64,000 nt of DNA from Polyangiales bacterium (GTDB lineage: Bacteria > Myxococcota_A > Polyangia > Polyangiales > Polyangiaceae): the NCBI GenBank assembly GCA_038231275.1, contig JBBRLQ010000028.1, forward strand, positions 44,155 through 108,154, in the 5' to 3' direction. A model generated the notes under the pieces. That model was not told where the DNA came from, searched no databases, and saw nothing but the letters and a program-made list of their open reading frames with translations. The position numbers and the translations under genes are program-made. This document shows positions 3,897-38,740 of this stretch, piece by piece. Position 1 is the first letter of the stretch. Each line of letters starts with the position of its first letter.

Positions 3897-4760
3897 ATGC
3901 GTATTCCGTCGAAGCTCCGCGCGCTCGCCCAGAGCCGCCTCGCGCAGTTCTGCGTGATCGGTGCGGCCATCTTCGCGCTCGCGCCGCACGATCGCGGCCG
4001 CCGCGTCGACGTCCCGGGGGCGACCCTGGCCGCGCTCCGCTCCGCCGAGGCCCGCCGCGTCGAAGCGCCGCTCGACGATCCCAAAGCGCACGAGGTCGAG
4101 GCGCGCGCCATCGAGGACGAGATCCTCTACCGCGAGGCGCTCCGCATGTCGCTCGACAAGGGAGATCCGCTGGTCCGGCAACGCCTCATCGAGAAGCTGC
4201 TGCTCCTCGTCGAGGACATGGGCGGGGCGTCGCGCGCGCCGACCGACGCCGAGCTGCGGGCGTACTTCGAGGAGACGCGCGCCCAGTGGCGTCGCGCGTC
4301 GCGCGTGCATTTCGTCCACGTGTTCGCGGCACGAAAGGACGCGCTGCCACCGGAAGGCGTGCTCGACCCTGACGCGCGCGAGGCCCCGGCCGTCGGTGAC
4401 GCGTTCCCCTACGCGCGCGACGTGACGGCGACGCGTGACGAGATCGGCCGCCTCTACGGGGCGGACGTGGCCGATCAGCTTGAGCGGCAAGACGGCGGGT
4501 GGAGCGCACCCGTGGCGTCATCCTTCGGGTGGCATCGCGTGCGCGTCGTCGAGAGGCTCCCCGGCGCGCCGGCGCGCTTCGAAGAGGTGAAGAAGGAGAT
4601 GGAGCTCGACTTCATGCTCGCGCGTCGCGAGAAGGTGGTCGGTTCGTACCTTCGCCGCCTCGCCTCCGAGTACGACATCCGCATCGACGGCCACAAGCTC
4701 ACGGGCTTCGTCCCTACGCGTCGCGTCGCGATGCGGGTCGACCCCTCGGCGGAGGACTGA
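3897..4760 (+). CDS. PpiC/parvulin-type peptidyl-prolyl isomerase-like protein (rotamase_2 type)
   Basis: N-terminal hydrophobic anchor; EDEILYREALRMSLDKGDPLVRQRL; WSAPVASSFGWHRVRV. Confidence 0.8.
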   Translation: MRIPSKLRALAQSRLAQFCVIGAAIFALAPHDRGRRVDVPGATLAALRSAEARRVEAPLDDPKAHEVEARAIEDEILYREALRMSLDKGDPLVRQRLIEKLLLLVEDMGGASRAPTDAELRAYFEETRAQWRRASRVHFVHVFAARKDALPPEGVLDPDAREAPAVGDAFPYARDVTATRDEIGRLYGADVADQLERQDGGWSAPVASSFGWHRVRVVERLPGAPARFEEVKKEMELDFMLARREKVVGSYLRRLASEYDIRIDGHKLTGFVPTRRVAMRVDPSAED

Positions 4761-4762
4761 CC

Positions 4763-5740
4763 GTGCGTGCCTACGTTCTGAACGCGCTCTTTTTCGTGAT
4801 TGTCGTCTTCGTCGTGGCGCTGCCGCGTGCGGCGCACGCGCACGGGATGAGCACTGCGTTCCTCGAGGTGACCGAGCTGGGGCAGGGTCGAGCGCTCCTT
4901 CGGCTCACGGCGTCGACGTCGACCTCGAGCCTGGCGATCGCGCCGCCGACCGGCTGCCGCGACGAGGAGCCCGACGGCGCCGGCGTCCGTTTCGTCGCGT
5001 GCGACGGCGACCTCGAAGGACGGAGCCTCGAAGTGAAGGGCATCGGCCCGCTCGTCAGCGAAGTGGTCCTGCAAGTGACGTTCGAAGGCGGCGCCGTCGT
5101 CACGCGCGTCCTGACCGCCGACGCGCCGTCGTGGACGATCCCGCGCGCGTCTCACCGGGGCGCGCTGCTCGCCGACTACGCGCGCCTCGGCGCGGTCCAC
5201 ATCTTCGGCGGCGTCGACCACCTCTTGTTCCTCGCCGCACTCGCGCTCTCCGTGCGAAAGGTCCGCGCCGTCCTCCTCGCCGAGACCGCCTTCACCGCGT
5301 CGCACTCGCTCACGTTCACGGCGAGCGCGCTCGGGTGGGTGCACGTCTCGTCCGTGGCGGCGGAGGCGTGCATCGCACTGTCGCTCGTCCTCGTGGCGCT
5401 CGACGCGGCGAAGGCGGCGGCCGACGGGGTGCTCGTCCCGGCGCGCCGCGCCGCCGGGCTCGCGTTCGCGTTCGGGCTCGTGCACGGGCTCGGCTTCGCG
5501 GGGGGCCTCGCCGAGATCGGCCTGCCCGATCGCGCGGTGGGCTGGGCGCTCCTGGGCTTCGCGGGCGGCGTCGAGGTCGGCCAGGTGATCTTCCTCGTCG
5601 TCTTCGTCGCCGCCCTCGCCGCCGTGACGCGCGTTCGCGCGCTCTCACGTGCTCCGCTCGCCGTCGCCTACGCGGTCGGCGGCGCGGGGGCGTTCCTGGT
5701 GCTCGAGAGACTGTCGGTGTTCGTCGCTCTCTTTTCGTGA
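4763..5740 (+). CDS. HupE/UreJ family membrane protein
   Basis: Signal peptide ending AHAH; LGAVHIFGGVDHLLFL, TAFTASHSLT, FGLVHGLGFA, GVEVGQ motifs. GTG start 2 nt after the upstream stop. Confidence 0.85.
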   Translation: MRAYVLNALFFVIVVFVVALPRAAHAHGMSTAFLEVTELGQGRALLRLTASTSTSSLAIAPPTGCRDEEPDGAGVRFVACDGDLEGRSLEVKGIGPLVSEVVLQVTFEGGAVVTRVLTADAPSWTIPRASHRGALLADYARLGAVHIFGGVDHLLFLAALALSVRKVRAVLLAETAFTASHSLTFTASALGWVHVSSVAAEACIALSLVLVALDAAKAAADGVLVPARRAAGLAFAFGLVHGLGFAGGLAEIGLPDRAVGWALLGFAGGVEVGQVIFLVVFVAALAAVTRVRALSRAPLAVAYAVGGAGAFLVLERLSVFVALFS

Positions 5741-32070: not shown

Positions 32071-32079
32071 GTGCTAAGA

Positions 32080-33306
32080 ATGCCCCCTTCGAGGTCCGTC
32101 TTGCCGAAAAGTCGCCTGTCCGTCGTCGCCTTGCTCTCTGCCGCCGCCGTCGTGGCGGCTGCCGCGTGCGGTGGCTCCTCCTCCCACGATCTGATCGGTC
32201 CGGACGGCGACGCTGGCTCCAGCGGTACGTCCGGCGCGAGCGGGACGAGCGGCACGTCCGGGACGAGTGGCACGAGCGGGACGAGCGGCACGAGCGGGAC
32301 CAGCGGGACGAGCGGGACCAGCGGCACGAGCGGGTCGAGTGGATCGAGCGGATCGAGCGGATCGAGCGGCAGCTCCGGCTCCACCGGCACGCTCCCCGAC
32401 GGCGGCGCGATCGCCTACACGTCGGCGGTGAAGATCATCGTCGAGCCGTCGGACAACGGCCAGGCGCTCCTCGATGCGATCAACGCCGCGAAGACGAGCG
32501 TGCACGTCACGATGTACCTGCTCACGTTCAACGGCCCGGTCTACAAGGCGCTCATCGCCGCCAAGAGCAAGGTCGAGGTGAAGGTCGTCCTCAACCAGAA
32601 TTTCCCGGGCGGTCAAGGGAGCAACGTCTCCACCTACAACGGCCTCAAGGCCGCCGGGGTCAACGTCGTATGGGCGCCGTCGGTCTACACGTTCACCCAC
32701 GAAAAATGCGTGATCCTCGACACCGCGACGGCTTGGATCATGACGATGAACGCGACGGACTCGTCGGCGTCGCAGAACCGCGAGTACCTCGCCGTCGACA
32801 CCGACGCCGACGACGTGAAGTACGCGGAGCAGATCTTCGAAGAAGACTTCACGGGCGCCGCCGCCAACGTGAGCGGCAAGCTCGTCCTTGCGCCGATCAA
32901 CGCCAAGGCCCGCATCTACGCGCTGCTCAAGTCGGCCACCACGAGCATCGACCTCGAGGGCGAAGAGTTCAGCGACATTGATCTCACCAACATCATCGCC
33001 GCCAAGGCCGACGCCGGCGTCGCGGTGCGCGTGGTCCTCGCCGACAACACGCCGACGCCGTCGCAGCAGACCTCCGTGACGACGCTGAAGGCGCACAAGA
33101 TCACCGTCAAGTCGATGTCGAACCCGTACGTCCACGCCAAGGCGATCGTCGTCGACGGCGTGCACGCCTACGTCGGCTCGGAGAACTTCACGAGCGGCTC
33201 GATGACCGGCAACCGCGAGCTCGGCGTGCTGTTCGACACGGCCGCGGAGGTCGCAAAGGTCACGACTACGATCGCGGCGGATTTCGCCGCAGGAACGGCG
33301 CTCTAA
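32080..33306 (+). CDS. Phospholipase D-family lipoprotein
   Basis: Lipobox AAAC; (SGT)n linker; two HKD motifs HEKCVILD and [16 protein letters not shown]. Confidence 0.9.
32215..32390 (+). repeat. Coding low-complexity repeat (SGT)n(SGS)n
   Basis: 9-bp units such as AGCGGGACG, AGCGGCACG and AGCGGATCG inside the PLD linker. Confidence 0.85.
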
Positions 33307-33343: not shown

Positions 33344-34855
33344 ATGTCCGACGAAATCACGCAAGCGCGGACCGAAGCGCGGCTCGCGAAGGGATTCCGA
33401 GACGTCGAAGCGGCTGAAATTCGCCGACACGACGCGATGATCGCCACGATCCGTTCGGTCTACGAGCGCTACGGCTTCGAGCCGCTCGAGACGCCGGCCT
33501 TCGAGTACACCGACGCGCTCGGAAAATTTCTGCCCGATCAGGATCGCCCGAACGCCGGCGTCTTCTCCGTGCAAGACGACGACGAGGCGTGGATGAGCCT
33601 GCGTTACGATCTCACGGCGCCGCTCGCGAGGTACGTTGCGCAGAACTACGAACGGCTCCCCAAGCCGTATCGCCGCTACGCGACCGGCCCGGTGTTTCGG
33701 AACGAGAAACCGGGCCCCAGCCGTTTCCGTCAGTTCGTTCAGTTCGACGCGGACACCGTCGGGACCGAGAACCTCGCGGCCGACGCCGAGCTCTGCATGC
33801 TCGCCGCCGACACGTTCGAGGCGCTGGGAATTCGGCGCGGCGACTACATCGTAAAGCTGAACCACCGGAAGCTCCTCGACGGCGTCCTCGAAGCGATCGG
33901 CGTCACCGCAGCGTCCGACGCCGACGGCAGCAAGCGACTCGCAGTGCTTCGCGCGATCGACAAGCTCGACCGACTCGGCAACGCCGGTGTGCTTGCGCTC
34001 TTGGGGCCTGGCAGAAAAGACGAGTCGGGCGACTTCACGAAAGGCGCCGGGCTCGACGCCGCCGCGACGGACGTGGTCATGCGCTTCGTCGGCGCGACTG
34101 CCGCAAACGAGGAGACGGCCCTGTCCACTGTCGAAGCGCTCGTGGCGTCGTCCGAAATCGGGCGCGCGGCGGTCGCCGATCTCCGGCAGCTCGACGCGCT
34201 CCTCAAGGGGGCAGGGTACGGCGCGGACCGCATTCGCTTCGACTCGACGGTCGTGCGCGGGCTCGAGTACTACACGGGGCCCGTCTTCGAGGCGGAGCTC
34301 ACCTTCGAGATCAAAGGGGACGACGGAGCGCCCGTTCGCTTCGGGGCCGTCGGCGGAGGCGGGCGCTACGACGATCTCGTCGCGCGATTTCTCGGCCAGA
34401 AGGTACCCGCCACAGGCTTCTCGGTGGGCGTGTCGCGTCTTCAGGCGGCGCTTGCCCATCTGAAACAAGACGACGCCGGCGCGACGCTCGGTCCAGTGGT
34501 CGTCCTCGTCATGGACCGCGCGGAGCTGCCGCGGTACCAGGCGATCGTGCAGACCCTCCGGCACGCGGGCATTCGCGCGGAGATGTACCTAGGCACGTCG
34601 GGAATGAAGCCGCAGATGAAGTACGCCGACCGGCGCAATAGCCCGTGCGTCGTCATCCAGGGATCGAACGAGCGCGCGAACGGCGAGATTCAGCTGAAGG
34701 ATCTCATCGAGGGGGCCAAAGCCGCCGCGTCGATCAAGGACAACAAGGCGTGGAAAGAAGCACGCCCCGCCCAAGTGACGATCAAAGAAGCGGACCTCGT
34801 CGACGAAGTCCGCCGTCTGCTCGCGCGGCACGACCCTCCAGCCGAGCATCCTTGA
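33344..34855 (+). CDS. hisS: Histidyl-tRNA synthetase, alphaproteobacterial-like type
   Basis: [22 protein letters not shown] (HisA), [20 protein letters not shown] (motif 2), VRGLEYYTG (HisB), [17 protein letters not shown] (motif 3), QMKYADRR anticodon-binding domain. Confidence 0.97.
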
Positions 34856-34876: not shown

Positions 34877-34953
34877 TGGTACCAGCTCTCGGGGTCGAAC
34901 CGAGGACCTCTAGATCCACAATCTAGCGCTCTAACCAACTGAGCTAAGCCGGC
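34877..34953 (-). tRNA. tRNA-His(GUG), CCA encoded, no encoded G-1, G1:U72, A73
   Basis: GCCGGCT TA GCTC AGTTGGTTA GAGC G CTAGA TTGTGGA TCTAG AGGTC CTCGG TTCGACC CCGAG AGCTGGT A CCA forms a full cloverleaf of 77 nt. The base 5' of G1 is C. Confidence 0.97.
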
Positions 34954-35076: not shown

Positions 35077-35682
35077 GTGGCAGTCCCGACCGGCGCGCAG
35101 AAGGACGAGGACAAGGACGACAAGGATCCCTGCGCGACCTGCGACGCCGACAAGAAGGCCAAGAAGAAAAAGGAGCGAGACGCCAAGGTCGCCAAGATGA
35201 CGGCCAAGCTCGATCCCCAGCTGAAGGCGGACGTCGAGAAGTCGCCGGAGCTGCAGAAGGATCTCGCCGAGCTCAATGACAAGGGCTGGACCGTGCGCGA
35301 GGATCCGAGCTTGAAGCCGCCGACGGCAGGCGTCACGAACTCCGCGACCAAAGAGATCACGCTCGCCTCTGGAAGCGACACCGGCACGCTCGCCCACGAA
35401 GTGCAGCACGCCCTGAACAGCGAATCGGGTCAGTATCAGCCGCCGCAGATCGGCTCGATGAGCCGAAGCGACTTCGTGAGCGCGGCGACGCAAGCGTCGG
35501 TGCAGGACGAGCGGTCGGCCTTCGGGAATCAGAACCTCGTGAGGAGCGAGATCTTGGCCAACGGCGGCCGCGACATCGGCCCCGTCCGGAGCTTCGGGTC
35601 GCTCTACCAGGACGCGTACACGAGCTACTACACGAACGCCTACGGCAAGTACTACGATACGTATGCGCCGGGAGGGAGGTGA
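35077..35682 (+). CDS. HEXXH zincin-like protein, candidate toxin/effector
   Basis: ITL....TLAHEVQHALN with a downstream DERSAF Glu; charged N-terminus with CxxC. Start uncertain. Confidence 0.6.
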   Translation: MAVPTGAQKDEDKDDKDPCATCDADKKAKKKKERDAKVAKMTAKLDPQLKADVEKSPELQKDLAELNDKGWTVREDPSLKPPTAGVTNSATKEITLASGSDTGTLAHEVQHALNSESGQYQPPQIGSMSRSDFVSAATQASVQDERSAFGNQNLVRSEILANGGRDIGPVRSFGSLYQDAYTSYYTNAYGKYYDTYAPGGR

Positions 35683-36134
35683 CGCCGATGAGCCACTGGA
35701 TCACCTCCCTCGTCGAGCACGTCGTACGGCAGCGGATGCCCCCAAAGAGCGGAGGCCTCTGGACCGGGCTCGGCGTTCCCGTCGTTCGCACCGAGACGAG
35801 CGGAGACATGGAGTACTTCCAGGGCGCCCTCGACGCCGGCCCCTTCACGAAAGCGGAGCTCCGGGTGAACCGCGCGACCGGCTTCGCGCTGCTCGTCCTC
35901 GCGCCACGCGACGACGCGCCCATCCGAGAAGCGGATCTCGCGCTCGACGCTTACGGGCCCAGTCGGGTCGAGATCACGCCGGACATTTCCCCCGAGGGGG
36001 CGACCACGCTCGTCTTCGAAGTGAACGGGGTCACGGTCCGCTTCCAGCTGACGACCGACGGTCGTGTGCTCCGCGTCATGAGCTTCACGTGGCCGGCGCG
36101 CGCGCTCCATTCGGTTCCGCACGATCGCCACTGA
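35679..36134 (+). CDS. Hypothetical protein, candidate immunity partner
   Basis: GGGAGGGAG RBS; GTGA overlap with the HEXXH gene stop. Confidence 0.55.
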   Translation: MTPMSHWITSLVEHVVRQRMPPKSGGLWTGLGVPVVRTETSGDMEYFQGALDAGPFTKAELRVNRATGFALLVLAPRDDAPIREADLALDAYGPSRVEITPDISPEGATTLVFEVNGVTVRFQLTTDGRVLRVMSFTWPARALHSVPHDRH

Positions 36135-36182: not shown

Positions 36183-36776
36183 ATGGATCATCGGTTCCCC
36201 GTCTCGAGCACCCCGCCTTGGGCCCGCCATCCTCGTGGCGGCCTGACGTTCGCCCCTCCGAGCGGGTGGCTCGATCGGACGGTCGTCGCGTACACGAGCC
36301 CGGCCGAGTCCACGAAGCCGCTCGCGCCGAGCATCGTGATTACGCGCGAGCCGGTTCGTCCCGGCGACACGCTGCGACTTCACGGGAACCGGCAGCTGAT
36401 GGAGCTCGAGGCGCAGCTCGAGCACTTCGACCTCGTGGAGTCGCGCGAGGCCGAGCTCGGTGGTTTCCCGGCCCTCTTCTATCGCTACACCTGGGTGAGC
36501 CACGTCGGGGCGCTCGAGCAGACGATGACCTTGGCGCTCTCGATGCACGACGGCGATTCGGTGATGACTACGGTGACGACGACCGCCGCGCGCGGGGACG
36601 CACGTGACGCCGACGCCGCGTTCGCAGGCATGCTCGCGACGATGCGCTTCGACGATCCGGGCTCGCCCGAGCCCGCGCGGATCTCGACCATCGTGCCGGC
36701 ACCGGCGGCCGTCGCCTCGATGGCGGACCTTCCCAGTTTTCCCATGCCCGGCGTCGGCCGCGGCGCCCGTCGCTGA
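36183..36776 (+). CDS. DcrB/DUF1795 (Eag-type) T6SS effector chaperone
   Basis: PSGWLDRTVVAY..SIVITRE..QL..L...LEHFDL..YTW pattern; directly upstream of a prePAAR effector. Confidence 0.75.
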   Translation: MDHRFPVSSTPPWARHPRGGLTFAPPSGWLDRTVVAYTSPAESTKPLAPSIVITREPVRPGDTLRLHGNRQLMELEAQLEHFDLVESREAELGGFPALFYRYTWVSHVGALEQTMTLALSMHDGDSVMTTVTTTAARGDARDADAAFAGMLATMRFDDPGSPEPARISTIVPAPAAVASMADLPSFPMPGVGRGARR

Positions 36777-36785
36777 GGCCCGGCC

Positions 36786-38441
36786 GTGAGCGTCACCCTC
36801 GCCGCCCGCATCGGCGACCAAGTCGGGAGCCATTCGGGCGCGCTCGCCGGGCTCTTGACGGGGATCGCCGTCGGCCTCGCGATCGGGGTCGCGATCGCCG
36901 TGACCATCGGCACGGGCGGCCTCGCCGGTCCCGCGCTCATCGGCGCGTACATGGCGATGGCCGGCGGCGCCGTGAGCCTGGGCGCCGTCGGGGGCATGGC
37001 CGGCGCAAAGTTTGGCGGCACGTTCAAGAAGGCCAGCCCATGCGGCGCCATCTCGACGGGCTCATCGAACGTCTTCATCGAGGGCGAGAGGGCCGCGCGC
37101 CGGGGCGTCGACACCGCCAAGCACGGCGCGAAGAAGATCGCGCAAGGGAGCTCCGCCGTCTTCGTGAACGGGTACATGCTCGCGCGCGACCAGGACGGCG
37201 TGGAGTGCGGCGGCAAGATCGTCAGCCACTGCATCAACGTCTGGATCGGCGGCGGAAGGGGCGGCGAAGAGGTCAGCGAGCTCCCCGGATGGGCGAAATG
37301 GCTCCCGGCGATCGCCTTGGCGGGCGGCGCGGTCGCGTTGGTCGGAGGCGTACTCGCGGCAGGTGTCGTCGCGACCGGCGTCATGTTCGGCGCGTCGATG
37401 GTGGGCGGCGCCGTCGGCAAGGCGGTGCTGGGCGCTGCGGGCCGCGGCATCGACGCGCTCGGCGGACGAACCGACGGGCGATGGGCGAGCTTACTGGGAA
37501 CGGTCGGCGAGGTGGGCGGGGGCCTCTTCGGCGGCGTGAAGAGCGCACGCGTCGCGACGCGCGCGGCCGAGTGGGCCGGCGATCTCTTCCCCGCGATGAA
37601 CCAGCCGCTCCTCACGCGAGGCGCGGGCGTGCCGAGCCCGGCGGATCTCTTGACCAGACCGATCGCCGAGCTTTCGCCGAGAGAGCTCGCGGAGAGCCCC
37701 GCCGAGCAGGCTCGCCTCTTTCGCGGCGCCCAGGACGCGCGCGATCGCATGCAGGCGGTGGCGGACGGGGTTCGCGAGAAGCTCGGCCTGCCCGAGACCA
37801 CGCCGTCTGGCCGGCCCACCGCGGAGTCGATGCTCAAGCGCGACGGCGAGGCGGAGTTCTTGCGTGGCGTCGAGGAGAAGTGCGCGCGGAAGGGCTATGA
37901 GCGCATCGGACAGATGGACGACATGGTCCGCGGACGATTCAACGCGCCGGACCGCGCCGCGGTCGAGCAGATCGTGGGCGAGCTCCGCGCGTCGGGCTAC
38001 GAGGTGAAGGAGGTGGTCGGTCCGCGCGTGAGCGATGGCGTCGAAAGCTACTCGCGCTACCACGTCGTCCTCCGCGACGCGGAGACCGGCCTCACCCACG
38101 AATGGCAAGTCGGCACCGACGCGACCACCAGCCTCTACGAGGACCAGGGCATTCGCATCCCCGACTCCCTCGCCGCCGCGCGCGACGCCGCCGGCAAGCA
38201 CTTCAACGACGATTTGCACGACGTTTATTACGATCTGTTCAAGTCGGTGAACCAGCAGAACCCGGACATGGGGCAGCGTTACGGGCTGGGCGACTTCATC
38301 GGCCAGGTCGAGGGGGCTGCGCCGCGCGCCGGCCAGGGCGAGGCCGTCGACGTTGCGGGAATGCACGAGCGCGCCTCGGACATCCTGGCGCGCATGGACG
38401 CGGAGCAAGGTTCACAATGGATCCTCGGGTTCTTCCATTGA
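36786..38441 (+). CDS. prePAAR-TMD-PAAR-TMD effector with a C-terminal RelA/SpoT-like nucleotidyltransferase toxin domain
   Basis: AARIGDQVGSH prePAAR; two Gly/Ala hydrophobic regions; GSSNVFIEGERAAR..GSSAVFVNG..AR..D.VECGGKI PAAR; LKR..EKCARKGY..DDMVRGRF..YSRYHVVL..EWQVGT. Confidence 0.8.
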   Translation: MSVTLAARIGDQVGSHSGALAGLLTGIAVGLAIGVAIAVTIGTGGLAGPALIGAYMAMAGGAVSLGAVGGMAGAKFGGTFKKASPCGAISTGSSNVFIEGERAARRGVDTAKHGAKKIAQGSSAVFVNGYMLARDQDGVECGGKIVSHCINVWIGGGRGGEEVSELPGWAKWLPAIALAGGAVALVGGVLAAGVVATGVMFGASMVGGAVGKAVLGAAGRGIDALGGRTDGRWASLLGTVGEVGGGLFGGVKSARVATRAAEWAGDLFPAMNQPLLTRGAGVPSPADLLTRPIAELSPRELAESPAEQARLFRGAQDARDRMQAVADGVREKLGLPETTPSGRPTAESMLKRDGEAEFLRGVEEKCARKGYERIGQMDDMVRGRFNAPDRAAVEQIVGELRASGYEVKEVVGPRVSDGVESYSRYHVVLRDAETGLTHEWQVGTDATTSLYEDQGIRIPDSLAAARDAAGKHFNDDLHDVYYDLFKSVNQQNPDMGQRYGLGDFIGQVEGAAPRAGQGEAVDVAGMHERASDILARMDAEQGSQWILGFFH

Positions 38442-38485
38442 GTGCAGCGAAGCGCAGCGGAGCGAAACGACTCCTGGCGGAGAGG

Positions 38486-38740
38486 ATGGGCACGAAGATG
38501 AGCTACCGAGTCTTGCAGAACGACCGCACCGCGGCCCTCGAGCGTGATTGCCCCGAATGCGGAACGAAGATGAAGGGAACGGGAGACCTCTACTGGAACA
38601 ACGCCGGCTGGTTCGTGGCGTTCTACTGCCCGCAGCACCGCGAGGTCTTTCCGACGTGGGCGCCGGAGTATGCGCATCTCGTCGACGAGCTCACGCGCGG
38701 CGTCGACCCGCAGACGCTCCCTACGAGGGGCGGCGGCTGA
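38486..38740 (+). CDS. Small Zn-ribbon protein, candidate immunity
   Basis: CPEC...CPQH; immediately downstream of the effector. Start at 38486 or 38498. Confidence 0.6.
   Translation: MGTKMSYRVLQNDRTAALERDCPECGTKMKGTGDLYWNNAGWFVAFYCPQHREVFPTWAPEYAHLVDELTRGVDPQTLPTRGGG

Follow-up and report, generated by a model that had tools for sequence, protein, structure and literature searches.

To our knowledge, toxic alarmone synthetases that are delivered by a type VI secretion system (T6SS) comprise one characterised example, Tas1/Apk1, to which a survey was added in 2025. The Tas1/Apk1-Tis1 system of Pseudomonas aeruginosa PA14 (structure 6OX6) consists of an Eag chaperone, an effector with prePAAR and PAAR parts, hydrophobic regions and a RelA/SpoT-homologue (RSH) toxin domain, and an immunity protein encoded downstream. 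The same cassette logic is found at positions 36183–38740 of the DNA analysed here, a 64,000-nucleotide stretch of contig JBBRLQ010000028.1 from a Polyangiales bacterium (assembly GCA_038231275.1), hereafter the window. With a probability of about 0.8, these three genes are a T6SS antibacterial cassette built like Pseudomonas Tas1/Apk1, encoding a chaperone, a pyrophosphokinase-type toxin and a binding-type immunity protein. The original prediction for this locus, made from the DNA letters and their translations, had named a prePAAR/PAAR effector of a T6SS, chaperoned by Eag and bearing a divergent RSH toxin, together with a possible binding-type immunity protein, and this core is supported by profile searches, the predicted fold, the family context and a controlled prediction of the toxin-immunity complex.

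Exported RSH domains have been surveyed by Ahmad and colleagues (mBio 2025; PMC12691689). The available sections of that survey place them on Rhs/PAAR proteins (15 sequences), on DUF4157/eCIS proteins (7), on LXG, XopAD and MuF proteins and on proteins with Sec signals, and report that exported synthetases making only (p)ppGpp are also toxic. The ways in which toxic small alarmone synthetases (toxSAS) are neutralised are described in PMC11782079. According to the available text, the antidotes of toxSAS enzymes that make (pp)pApp (Tas1, FaRel) work by occluding the acceptor site, and toxSAS enzymes that target tRNA (FaRel2, CapRel, PhRel, PhRel2) are blocked at the ATP donor site by a pseudo-zinc-finger domain (pZFD) through a YXXY motif and pairing with strand beta1.

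The toxin domain and its family

The toxin is the C-terminal domain of the effector, residues 319–551, encoded at 37740–38438 on the plus strand (233 aa, P0001). Its fold and its conserved residues show that it is an RSH synthetase (toxSYNTH) of a divergent type. The AlphaFold2 model (pLDDT 96.4, pTM 0.90) gave 15 Foldseek matches at E ≤ 0.001, and all of the matches listed at E ≤ 1e-3 were RSH synthetases, including SAS1, RelP and Tas1. The best was SAS1 (5ded_H, 1.9e-4); Tas1 (6ox6_A) scored 1.0e-3, CapRel (7ztb) 1.4e-3 and an exported synthetase (8vx3) 2.3e-3. Comparison of the model with VIA yielded Z 12.2 for SAS1 (5ded_G; rmsd 3.2, 148 residues aligned), 11.1 for CapRel (7ztb_B; rmsd 5.2, 166 aligned) and 10.7 for Tas1 (6ox6_A; rmsd 3.5, 155 aligned). 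Long Rel enzymes reached Z 11–12 and the RSH structures as a whole 9.5–12.2, the first non-RSH folds appearing at Z ≤ 8.2 and the Pol-beta-type nucleotidyltransferases at Z ~7.

The same assignment is given by the conserved residues. An exhaustive phmmer search over 1.84 billion representatives identified 130 relatives at E ≤ 1e-3, of which 104 remained at E ≤ 1e-10. In a 51-sequence alignment, R106, E121 and Q123 (P0001 numbering) are invariant, and D61, R64, R66, P95, Y104, H108, G125, H160 and Y164 show conservation of 90% or more; the synthetase motifs are the most conserved columns of the family. In P0001 these motifs read DDMVRGRF (D61/R64/R66), YSRYH (Y104/R106/H108) and EWQVGT (E121/Q123/G125), followed by a fifth motif, H160..Y164, which reads HDVYYD against a family consensus of HDIEYD. 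On the plus strand, the catalytic-type D61 is encoded at 37920–37922, the G-loop Y104..H108 at 38049–38063, E121-x-Q123 at 38100–38108 and H160..Y164 at 38217–38231. The family form of the third motif (syn3) is Y-P-R-Y-H, and in the Y-S-R-Y-H of P0001 the His is kept.

When the family profile built from this alignment was searched against the PDB, it matched YjbM/RelQ (5f2v, 5ded, 5dec) at 3.3e-5 to 3.8e-5, as well as 2be3 (4.1e-5), 3l9d (8.8e-5) and RelP 6fgk (0.066). The family motif mdDivRGR was aligned with MQDIAGLR of RelQ (DIAGLR), GYPRyH with GYRSYH, and EwQiGt with EIQIRT. Because the profile aligns them with the RelQ motifs at E 3.3e-5, the motifs are far beyond chance. Departures from the canonical residues are Gly for Arg in syn4 and Arg for Ser in syn3. 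Among 30 homologues that were scanned, 12 matched the Pfam RelA_SpoT model (PF04607) at E ≤ 1e-3, with P0009 (37.5 bits), P0027 (32.1) and P0015 (29.6) above the cut-off of 27, and RelA_SpoT is found in 23% of the members of the nearest Atlas cluster.

Several statements of the original prediction bear on this domain. An RSH fold, which was to be sought by structure prediction, is the one predicted, with Z 12.2 to SAS1 and 10.7 to Tas1, and the four RSH motifs that had been read in the C-terminal domain are present, conserved above all other columns of the family and aligned with those of RelQ. The reported absence of a KDY/DDY motif did not stand, as the fifth synthetase motif was located at H160..Y164 and all five motifs are there. 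Likewise, the Arg-to-Gly change in EWQVGT had been taken to imply altered specificity; it was dropped as a marker of new specificity, since Tas1, a proven (p)ppApp synthetase, also lacks this Arg and the change is uninformative. The syn4 motif of Tas1 is EIQVNS (PMC12691689, supplementary file 4).

The domain is carried by 128 representatives and ends within 15 residues of the C-terminus in 99 of them. The endings of these 99 copies include FFH (19), FYH (14), FLH (4), LLH (4) and WYH (4). The family near-always closes in an aromatic-aromatic-His or hydrophobic-aromatic-His triplet, and the ending of the effector itself is encoded at 38430–38438. Judged from the sequence, the conservation of a His at the very end suggests that the free C-terminus may have a function. 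The carriers are diverse: of the 30 scanned, two hold PAAR and five hold eCIS_core/DUF4157, and ADP-ribosyltransferase, calpain protease and Big (Ig-like) domains also occur. The toxin domain behaves as a polymorphic-toxin module. Six giant proteins of 2396–7141 aa (P0009, P0010, P0013, P0017, P0031 and P0034) contain two to four complete tandem copies of the domain; P0009 has four, each at E ~1e-54 to 1e-57, in addition to an N-terminal eCIS_core. Such repetition of full catalytic toxin domains within one polypeptide is unusual.

The small downstream protein and its predicted complex with the toxin

The third gene of the cassette (38498–38740, plus strand) encodes an 80-aa candidate immunity protein with the Zn-ribbon-like arrangement C18-x2-C21...C44-x2-H47, a candidate on account of synteny and predicted binding. 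Its likely start is ATG 38498 (MSYRVL...), where the homologues and the database copy begin and where GGAGAGG lies 12 nt upstream. The original prediction had placed this open reading frame (ORF) at 38486–38740; the small gene is real, and of its start codons 38498 is likelier than 38486, from the starts of the homologues.

Related loci were found with a 12-sequence alignment of the toxin domain. These 20 loci include representatives of Myxococcales, Solirubrobacter, Acidobacteriota, Nitrosospira, Anaerolineae and Polyangiaceae, and in them a protein of 75–106 aa with the pattern C-x2-C...TG...W..[EA][FY].C recurs right after the toxin stop codon. A hidden Markov model (HMM) of 13 such proteins was searched against all 2673 ORFs, in six frames and no shorter than 40 aa, of the 20 loci and the window. 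Its only matches were ORFs that follow the toxin directly and in the same orientation; such matches were obtained for the window and for 13 of the 20 loci. Matches outside the training set were found in L022 (3.8e-9), in L018 (4.2e-4, at the N-terminus of a 223-aa protein) and as two extra copies in L017. In this last locus, from a Polyangiaceae metagenome-assembled genome (MAG), three tandem paralogues follow the toxin gene (4620–5541, plus strand; E 7.6e-23, 9.2e-20 and 1.2e-18), and the triplet looks like an immunity-gene array, an arrangement typical of immunity genes.

Seven of the 20 loci had no HMM match. Two of these are at a contig edge, two (L019 and L024) hold similar Cys-pair proteins recognised by eye, and three hold other genes. 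Immunity genes of the HD/SAH hydrolase type were sought downstream of the toxin in the loci lacking the small protein, and none was found there; the gene in L012 codes for a HerA-like ATPase, and those in L025, L019 and L024 belong to no family. Also, in L018 (5516–6187), L019 (7578–8240) and L024 (5777–6286), the downstream proteins are 169–223 aa long and carry a CxxC...CxxC module that resembles the immunity protein, fused to an extra domain without a family. Of these three, the HMM detects the L018 protein alone (4.2e-4), and the toxin domain in these loci is internal, not C-terminal.

No Pfam match was obtained for the 80-aa protein itself. A word-based homologue search recovered two close relatives, and the wider family was seen through synteny and a profile search of 5.8 billion clusters, which identified 27 proteins, none with a Pfam domain and all named hypothetical save two with the automatic label 'phage FluMu protein Com'. 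Within the alignment of 13 members, W38 and C44 alone are invariant; the first Cys pair (CxxC) is lost in four, and the fourth ligand position is occupied by H, D, E or C. Zinc binding is plausible in the 80-aa protein of the window and is not a constant of the family. The Zn ribbon of the original prediction is plausible for the window protein, with its C18, C21, C44 and H47, and fails as a family-wide feature.

The AlphaFold2 model of the small protein is confident (pLDDT 93), and Foldseek found no relative of this fold in the PDB at E ≤ 1e-3. Over 48,161 chains, the best VIA match was the N-terminal domain of DsbG at Z 4.6, and a PDB-wide VIA search gave the same result; the weak matches include the Zn ribbons of NrdR and Rpb9 at Z ~3. 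Tis1 (6ox6 chain B), ATfaRel2 and the CapRel pZFD were not among the matches, which does not exclude them because small proteins are easily missed. A Y-x-x-Y motif is absent from the 80-aa sequence. The proposal of a new binding-type immunity family without an HD motif agrees with these results, in that the family is unannotated and syntenic with the toxin domain in 13 of 20 loci, and that the window protein has a predicted binding score (ipSAE) of 0.77 with its toxin.

For the prediction of the complex, the toxin domain and the 80-aa protein were each supplied with their own alignment. Three runs gave ipSAE values of 0.77, 0.78 and 0.77, as against 0.00–0.01 for three controls; the ipSAE mark applied is reached by 116 of 157 solved complexes and by 2 of 215 mismatched pairs. 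The runs agree in at least 89% of their contacts, with a partner pLDDT of 87. As no relative of the immunity protein has a solved structure, it is improbable that the score reflects a complex already known to the predictor. The model supports binding of the 80-aa protein to the toxin domain. In the confident contacts, strand 49–53 of the immunity protein is predicted to pair with strand 92–94 of the toxin, and the toxin residues named in the predicted interface (88–98, 100–101, 103–104 and 107–108) form the beta3/G-loop hairpin that includes Y104 and H108. The syn3 G-loop holds the acceptor base in RSH enzymes. The 80-aa protein would dock by beta-strand pairing on the beta3/G-loop, at the predicted acceptor side, and would block the entry of substrate instead of hydrolysing the product.

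Proposed delivery of the effector and probable acceptor of the toxin

DcrB/DUF1795 is the family of Eag chaperones. The first gene of the cassette (36183–36776, plus strand; alternative start TTG 36156) matches the model of this family, PF08786, over residues 22–142 at E 1.4e-15 (58 bits against a cut-off of 27.2). The same chaperone gene is found at the same position in L007 (PF08786, E 4.5e-15). Nine nucleotides past its stop codon, a GTG codon starts the effector gene (36786–38441, plus strand; 551 aa), whose GC content at third codon positions (GC3) is 0.89. A 567-aa homologue of the effector in L007, P0007, is 90% identical.

All parts of the delivery half are encoded on the plus strand. 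A prePAAR-like motif, AARIGDQVGSH, was identified by pattern match at residues 6–16 (36801–36833). It is followed by a hydrophobic, putatively transmembrane region at residues 15–69 (36828–36992; Kyte-Doolittle peak 2.45, in a 19-residue window as for all such regions), with one charged residue in residues 17–75. The PAAR domain spans residues 82–147 (37029–37226; PF05488, E 5.8e-13; NF033420, E 3.3e-11, under its cut-off), and a second hydrophobic region spans residues 168–217 (37287–37436; peak 2.23). The Pfam prePAAR_I model (PF25799), which has a cut-off of 25 bits, scores the effector just below this mark, at 23.7 bits (E 6e-5), and the 90% identical P0007 at 25.1 bits. The DUF1795-like gene of the original prediction is thereby confirmed, and its AARxxDxxxxH motif, two transmembrane domains (TMDs) and PAAR domain all lie where it had put them.

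The available text of PMC7773334 gives the prePAAR motif as AARxxDxxxH and divides the effectors into large Rhs proteins with one TMD region (class I) and proteins of about 450 aa in which two TMD regions are combined with the motif GxxxxGxxLxGxxxD (class II). Both classes require an Eag chaperone, and Tas1 is among the named prePAAR matches (PMC7773334). The effector of the window has a class II layout, with hydrophobic regions flanking PAAR, a length of 551 aa and no Rhs/YD match. The Eag gene directly upstream and the T6SS genes in the genome also agree with class II. By analogy with Tse6/Tas1-type effectors, the chaperone would shield the two hydrophobic regions in the cytoplasm of the producer, the prePAAR and PAAR parts would mount the effector on the VgrG spike and, after firing, the transmembrane regions would help the C-terminal domain to reach the cytoplasm of the target cell.

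The original prediction had suggested a look for T6SS core genes and vgrG elsewhere in the genome, and both were found. The 9.28-Mb assembly (164 contigs) encodes TssC/VipB (E 3.4e-129) and has nine Phage_GPD (VgrG-type), eight DcrB and three PAAR matches. The genome can support T6SS delivery.

Once in the target cell, the toxin would carry out the chemistry of its superfamily, in which ATP donates pyrophosphate to a 3'-OH on an acceptor. The identity of the acceptor, that is, the substrate specificity, cannot be read from sequence. A purine nucleotide (A, G or both) has somewhat better than even odds; the toxin would then act as an alarmone synthetase, with toxic overproduction of (p)ppApp and/or (p)ppGpp and a drain on ATP. 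In PMC12226406, as far as its text is available, GxN in syn3 is the signature of adenosine pyrophosphokinases and SxH that of the guanosine type, and motif swaps did not convert the specificity. A choice between A and G from the syn motifs was therefore abandoned, as the swap experiment shows these motifs to be insufficient (PMC12226406). The toxin domain is acidic, with a pI of 4.9 and a net charge of -13, and the family median pI is 6.8. This acidity fits a nucleotide acceptor somewhat better than tRNA, a slight hint that is drawn from the family's own values. The signals from the immunity side are mixed: a Zn-finger-like neutraliser points to the tRNA class, and the lack of YXXY together with the predicted acceptor-side contact points to the nucleotide class. 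Any other acceptor or activity has a slight chance.

Should the acceptor be the 3'-CCA end of tRNA, the same cassette and fold would house a pyrophosphokinase like FaRel2, CapRel and PhRel2, and the toxin would halt translation instead of making a toxic alarmone. We consider this unlikely. It draws on the match to CapRel (7ztb_B, Z 11.1), which is within 1–1.5 of the best and effectively tied with it, on the predicted beta-strand-pairing mode, as in ATfaRel2, and on the small beta-rich neutraliser with partly decayed Cys ligands, which recalls the pseudo-Zn-finger antitoxins in the available text of PMC11782079. However, the predicted interface is on the beta3/G-loop and not on beta1 or the donor site, whose residues are not among the named contacts, the immunity protein lacks YXXY, no fold match to the CapRel pZFD or ATfaRel2 was obtained (which does not exclude one), and the domain is acidic, at pI 4.9 against the family median of 6.8. 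A very improbable reading keeps the RSH/nucleotidyltransferase fold with a different chemistry, such as nucleotidyl transfer or a non-purine acceptor, or makes the domain a catalytically dead binder. DMVRGR stands for DxxGxR, YxRYH for YxSxH and EWQVGT for EIQIRT, Pol-beta-type nucleotidyltransferases appear at Z ~7, and the aromatic-aromatic-His at the C-terminus is near-invariant. We know of no counterpart of this ending in RSH enzymes. Yet all RSH residue classes are kept (D61, R64/R66, Y104, H108, E121, Q123, H160 and Y164) and are the most conserved of the family, RSH synthetases score about four Z units above other nucleotidyltransferases, and the conserved gene set aside for immunity implies that the domain does harm. 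Also very improbable is that the 80-aa protein serves, say, as a regulator or adaptor and that the producer is protected by something else, for instance an alarmone hydrolase encoded in its chromosome. The seven of 20 loci without a detectable homologue, two of them at a contig edge, and the two entries named automatically as 'phage FluMu protein Com' would suit such a role, but in 13 of 20 loci, which span several phyla, the gene comes right after the toxin and in its orientation. It is also triplicated in tandem in L017 and encodes a protein with strong predicted binding and clean controls, and no HD-type gene follows the toxin in the loci where the small protein is lacking.

Several observations weigh against a Tas1-like cassette with an alarmone-synthetase toxin. 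P0001 has no match to Pfam RelA_SpoT (PF04607) even at E ≤ 10, the only Pfam match being PSD2 (0.035), and single-sequence phmmer against the PDB gave an unrelated best match at E 0.65; NCBIfam, PHROGs and PADLOC returned nothing useful for the single sequence. RSH membership therefore rests on profile and fold. Tas1 (6ox6) is absent at E ≤ 10 from the family-profile search and also from the single-sequence phmmer search. The acceptor signatures are mixed, the syn3 His being of the guanosine type (x-R-x-H), not GxN, and syn4 lacking the Arg, like Tas1. The immunity protein is Zn-finger-like, as are the known partners of tRNA-targeting toxSAS, which pulls toward a tRNA acceptor. The interface is a prediction, and the donor-site residues K33/R34, K47–K51, D61–R66 and E121/Q123, none of which it names as contacts, are merely uncertain in it. 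In the delivery half, the exact AARxxDxxxH motif is absent from the effector, which has AARxxDxxxxH with one extra residue between D and H, and the class II motif GxxxxGxxLxGxxxD is unmatched after the second TMD region, even with relaxed spacing. The cassette itself contains no vgrG or T6SS core gene; as the core genes are all on other contigs, it is an orphan effector cassette.

Genomic setting and comparison with known systems

The GC content is about 66–74% around the cassette, which forms the last three of five co-directional plus-strand genes (GC3 0.86–0.89). This run is bounded on one side by the histidyl-tRNA synthetase (HisRS) gene (33344–34855; PF13393, E 1.5e-45) and the tRNA-His gene (34877–34953, minus strand), and on the other by a block of minus-strand genes. 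The first two genes of the run encode a Lys-rich protein of 201 aa with an HEVQH (HExxH) motif (35077–35682, plus strand) and a protein of 151 aa (35679–36134, plus strand), which overlaps the stop of the HExxH gene by 4 nt; the two lie directly upstream of the Eag gene. Neither protein has a match in Pfam, NCBIfam, PHROGs, PADLOC or the PDB. In L007, both have conserved counterparts next to the cassette (61% and 70% identity, respectively), the HExxH gene being on the opposite strand there. The two may form a further toxin-immunity pair or have an accessory role in the cassette. Farther upstream, a PLD-like protein predicted to be secreted (32071–33306, plus strand; PLDc_2, E 7.5e-40) contains an extended low-complexity linker, (SGT)n, which triggers the Collagen model as well; the protein is unconnected with the cassette.

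The closest locus, L007, is from a Myxococcales MAG of the same genus, and its left flank differs from the HisRS and tRNA-His genes of the window. The gene in that flank (1–1085) reads as a putative sugar kinase. The different left flanks suggest a mobile island, possibly tRNA-associated. The toxin domain occurs once in the host genome and in one of 40 related genomes searched, that one from the same genus. The single copy, this sparse distribution and the different flank in L007 fit a mobile cassette.

The concept of exported RSH domains is already in print (PMC12691689, available sections). PAAR and eCIS_core proteins are among the carriers of the present family too. Six strings typical of the family (HEWQ, EWQVGT, EWQIGT, YPRYH, RGRFN and HDIEYD) had no match in any of the six supplementary files of this survey, and WQIG and WQVG had none in sequence file 5, the file searched for them, a motif-string search that bears on these supplementary files only (PMC12691689). 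EIQIRT occurs 218 times in each of the two sequence files, and two distant look-alikes of the form DVVRGRI...FELQIGS are also present (PMC12691689). No Zn-ribbon-like immunity family is described in the available sections of PMC12691689. A literature search on toxSAS and PAAR effectors with zinc-ribbon immunity brought up no account of the toxin family, which does not prove that there is none.

A bolder view, which we hold only tentatively, is that the HEWQ[VI]GT family is a separate, uncharacterised clade of secreted RSH pyrophosphokinases that travels on T6SS PAAR, eCIS and other vehicles, sometimes in two to four tandem copies, with an acceptor that may be unlike the exclusive ATP/ADP of Tas1 and with a new, partly degenerate Zn-ribbon immunity fold that plugs the acceptor-side G-loop. 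If this were true, the effector could be the first of a T6SS that kills by overproducing (p)ppGpp, or it could use a new acceptor, and the published pairing of a Zn-finger-like neutraliser with donor-site block and a tRNA-targeting toxSAS would be broken. As it stands, the locus adds a sequence-distinct toxSYNTH clade, absent from the survey files by motif search, and a Tas1-like delivery architecture outside the Proteobacteria, where prePAAR was defined, with a motif that is one residue longer. A third addition is an immunity family, conserved and unannotated, and the way in which it is predicted to bind would put to the test the proposed rule that links the site of neutralisation to the substrate of a toxSAS. 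With 233 + 80 aa, toxin and immunity protein make up a small pair that folds confidently in silico.

Among characterised enzymes, RelQ/SAS1 and RelP/SAS2 (5DED, 5DEC, 5F2V, 6EWZ and 6FGK) are the best profile and fold matches, and syn2 to syn4 align. These are cytoplasmic, housekeeping tetramers that make (p)ppGpp, whereas the present domain is carried at the C-terminus of a secreted polymorphic toxin that comes with a dedicated immunity gene. Its C-terminal helical part also differs and ends in the conserved aromatic-aromatic-His. With FaRel2-ATfaRel2 and CapRel, the system shares the toxSYNTH fold (CapRel Z 11.1), a small Zn-finger-like neutraliser and, as predicted here, a beta-sheet extension. 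The neutralisers of FaRel2 and CapRel block the ATP donor site via YXXY; the 80-aa protein has no YXXY and is predicted to contact the G-loop on the acceptor side. Also, FaRel2 and CapRel are intracellular toxin–antitoxin and defence modules, in contrast to the secreted effector of this locus.

Tas1/Apk1-Tis1 remains the nearest system in design. The folds match (Z 10.7, 155 residues), both domains lack the Arg of EIQIRT, and Tis1 is reported to act on the acceptor side (PMC11782079, available text), the same side as predicted for the 80-aa protein. At the level of sequence, no relationship is detectable, 6ox6 not being listed by the family profile at E ≤ 10; syn2 and syn3 are DLARNT and GYSGVN in Tas1 and DMVRGR and YSRYH in this toxin. 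The Zn-ribbon-like 80-aa beta protein shows no detected similarity to Tis1, and the host of Tas1 is a pseudomonad, whereas the nearest relative here is in a Myxococcales MAG. The kind of system is known; distinct in this locus are the clade of the toxin, an unannotated immunity family without a detected structural relative and a variant prePAAR in a Myxococcales-type host.

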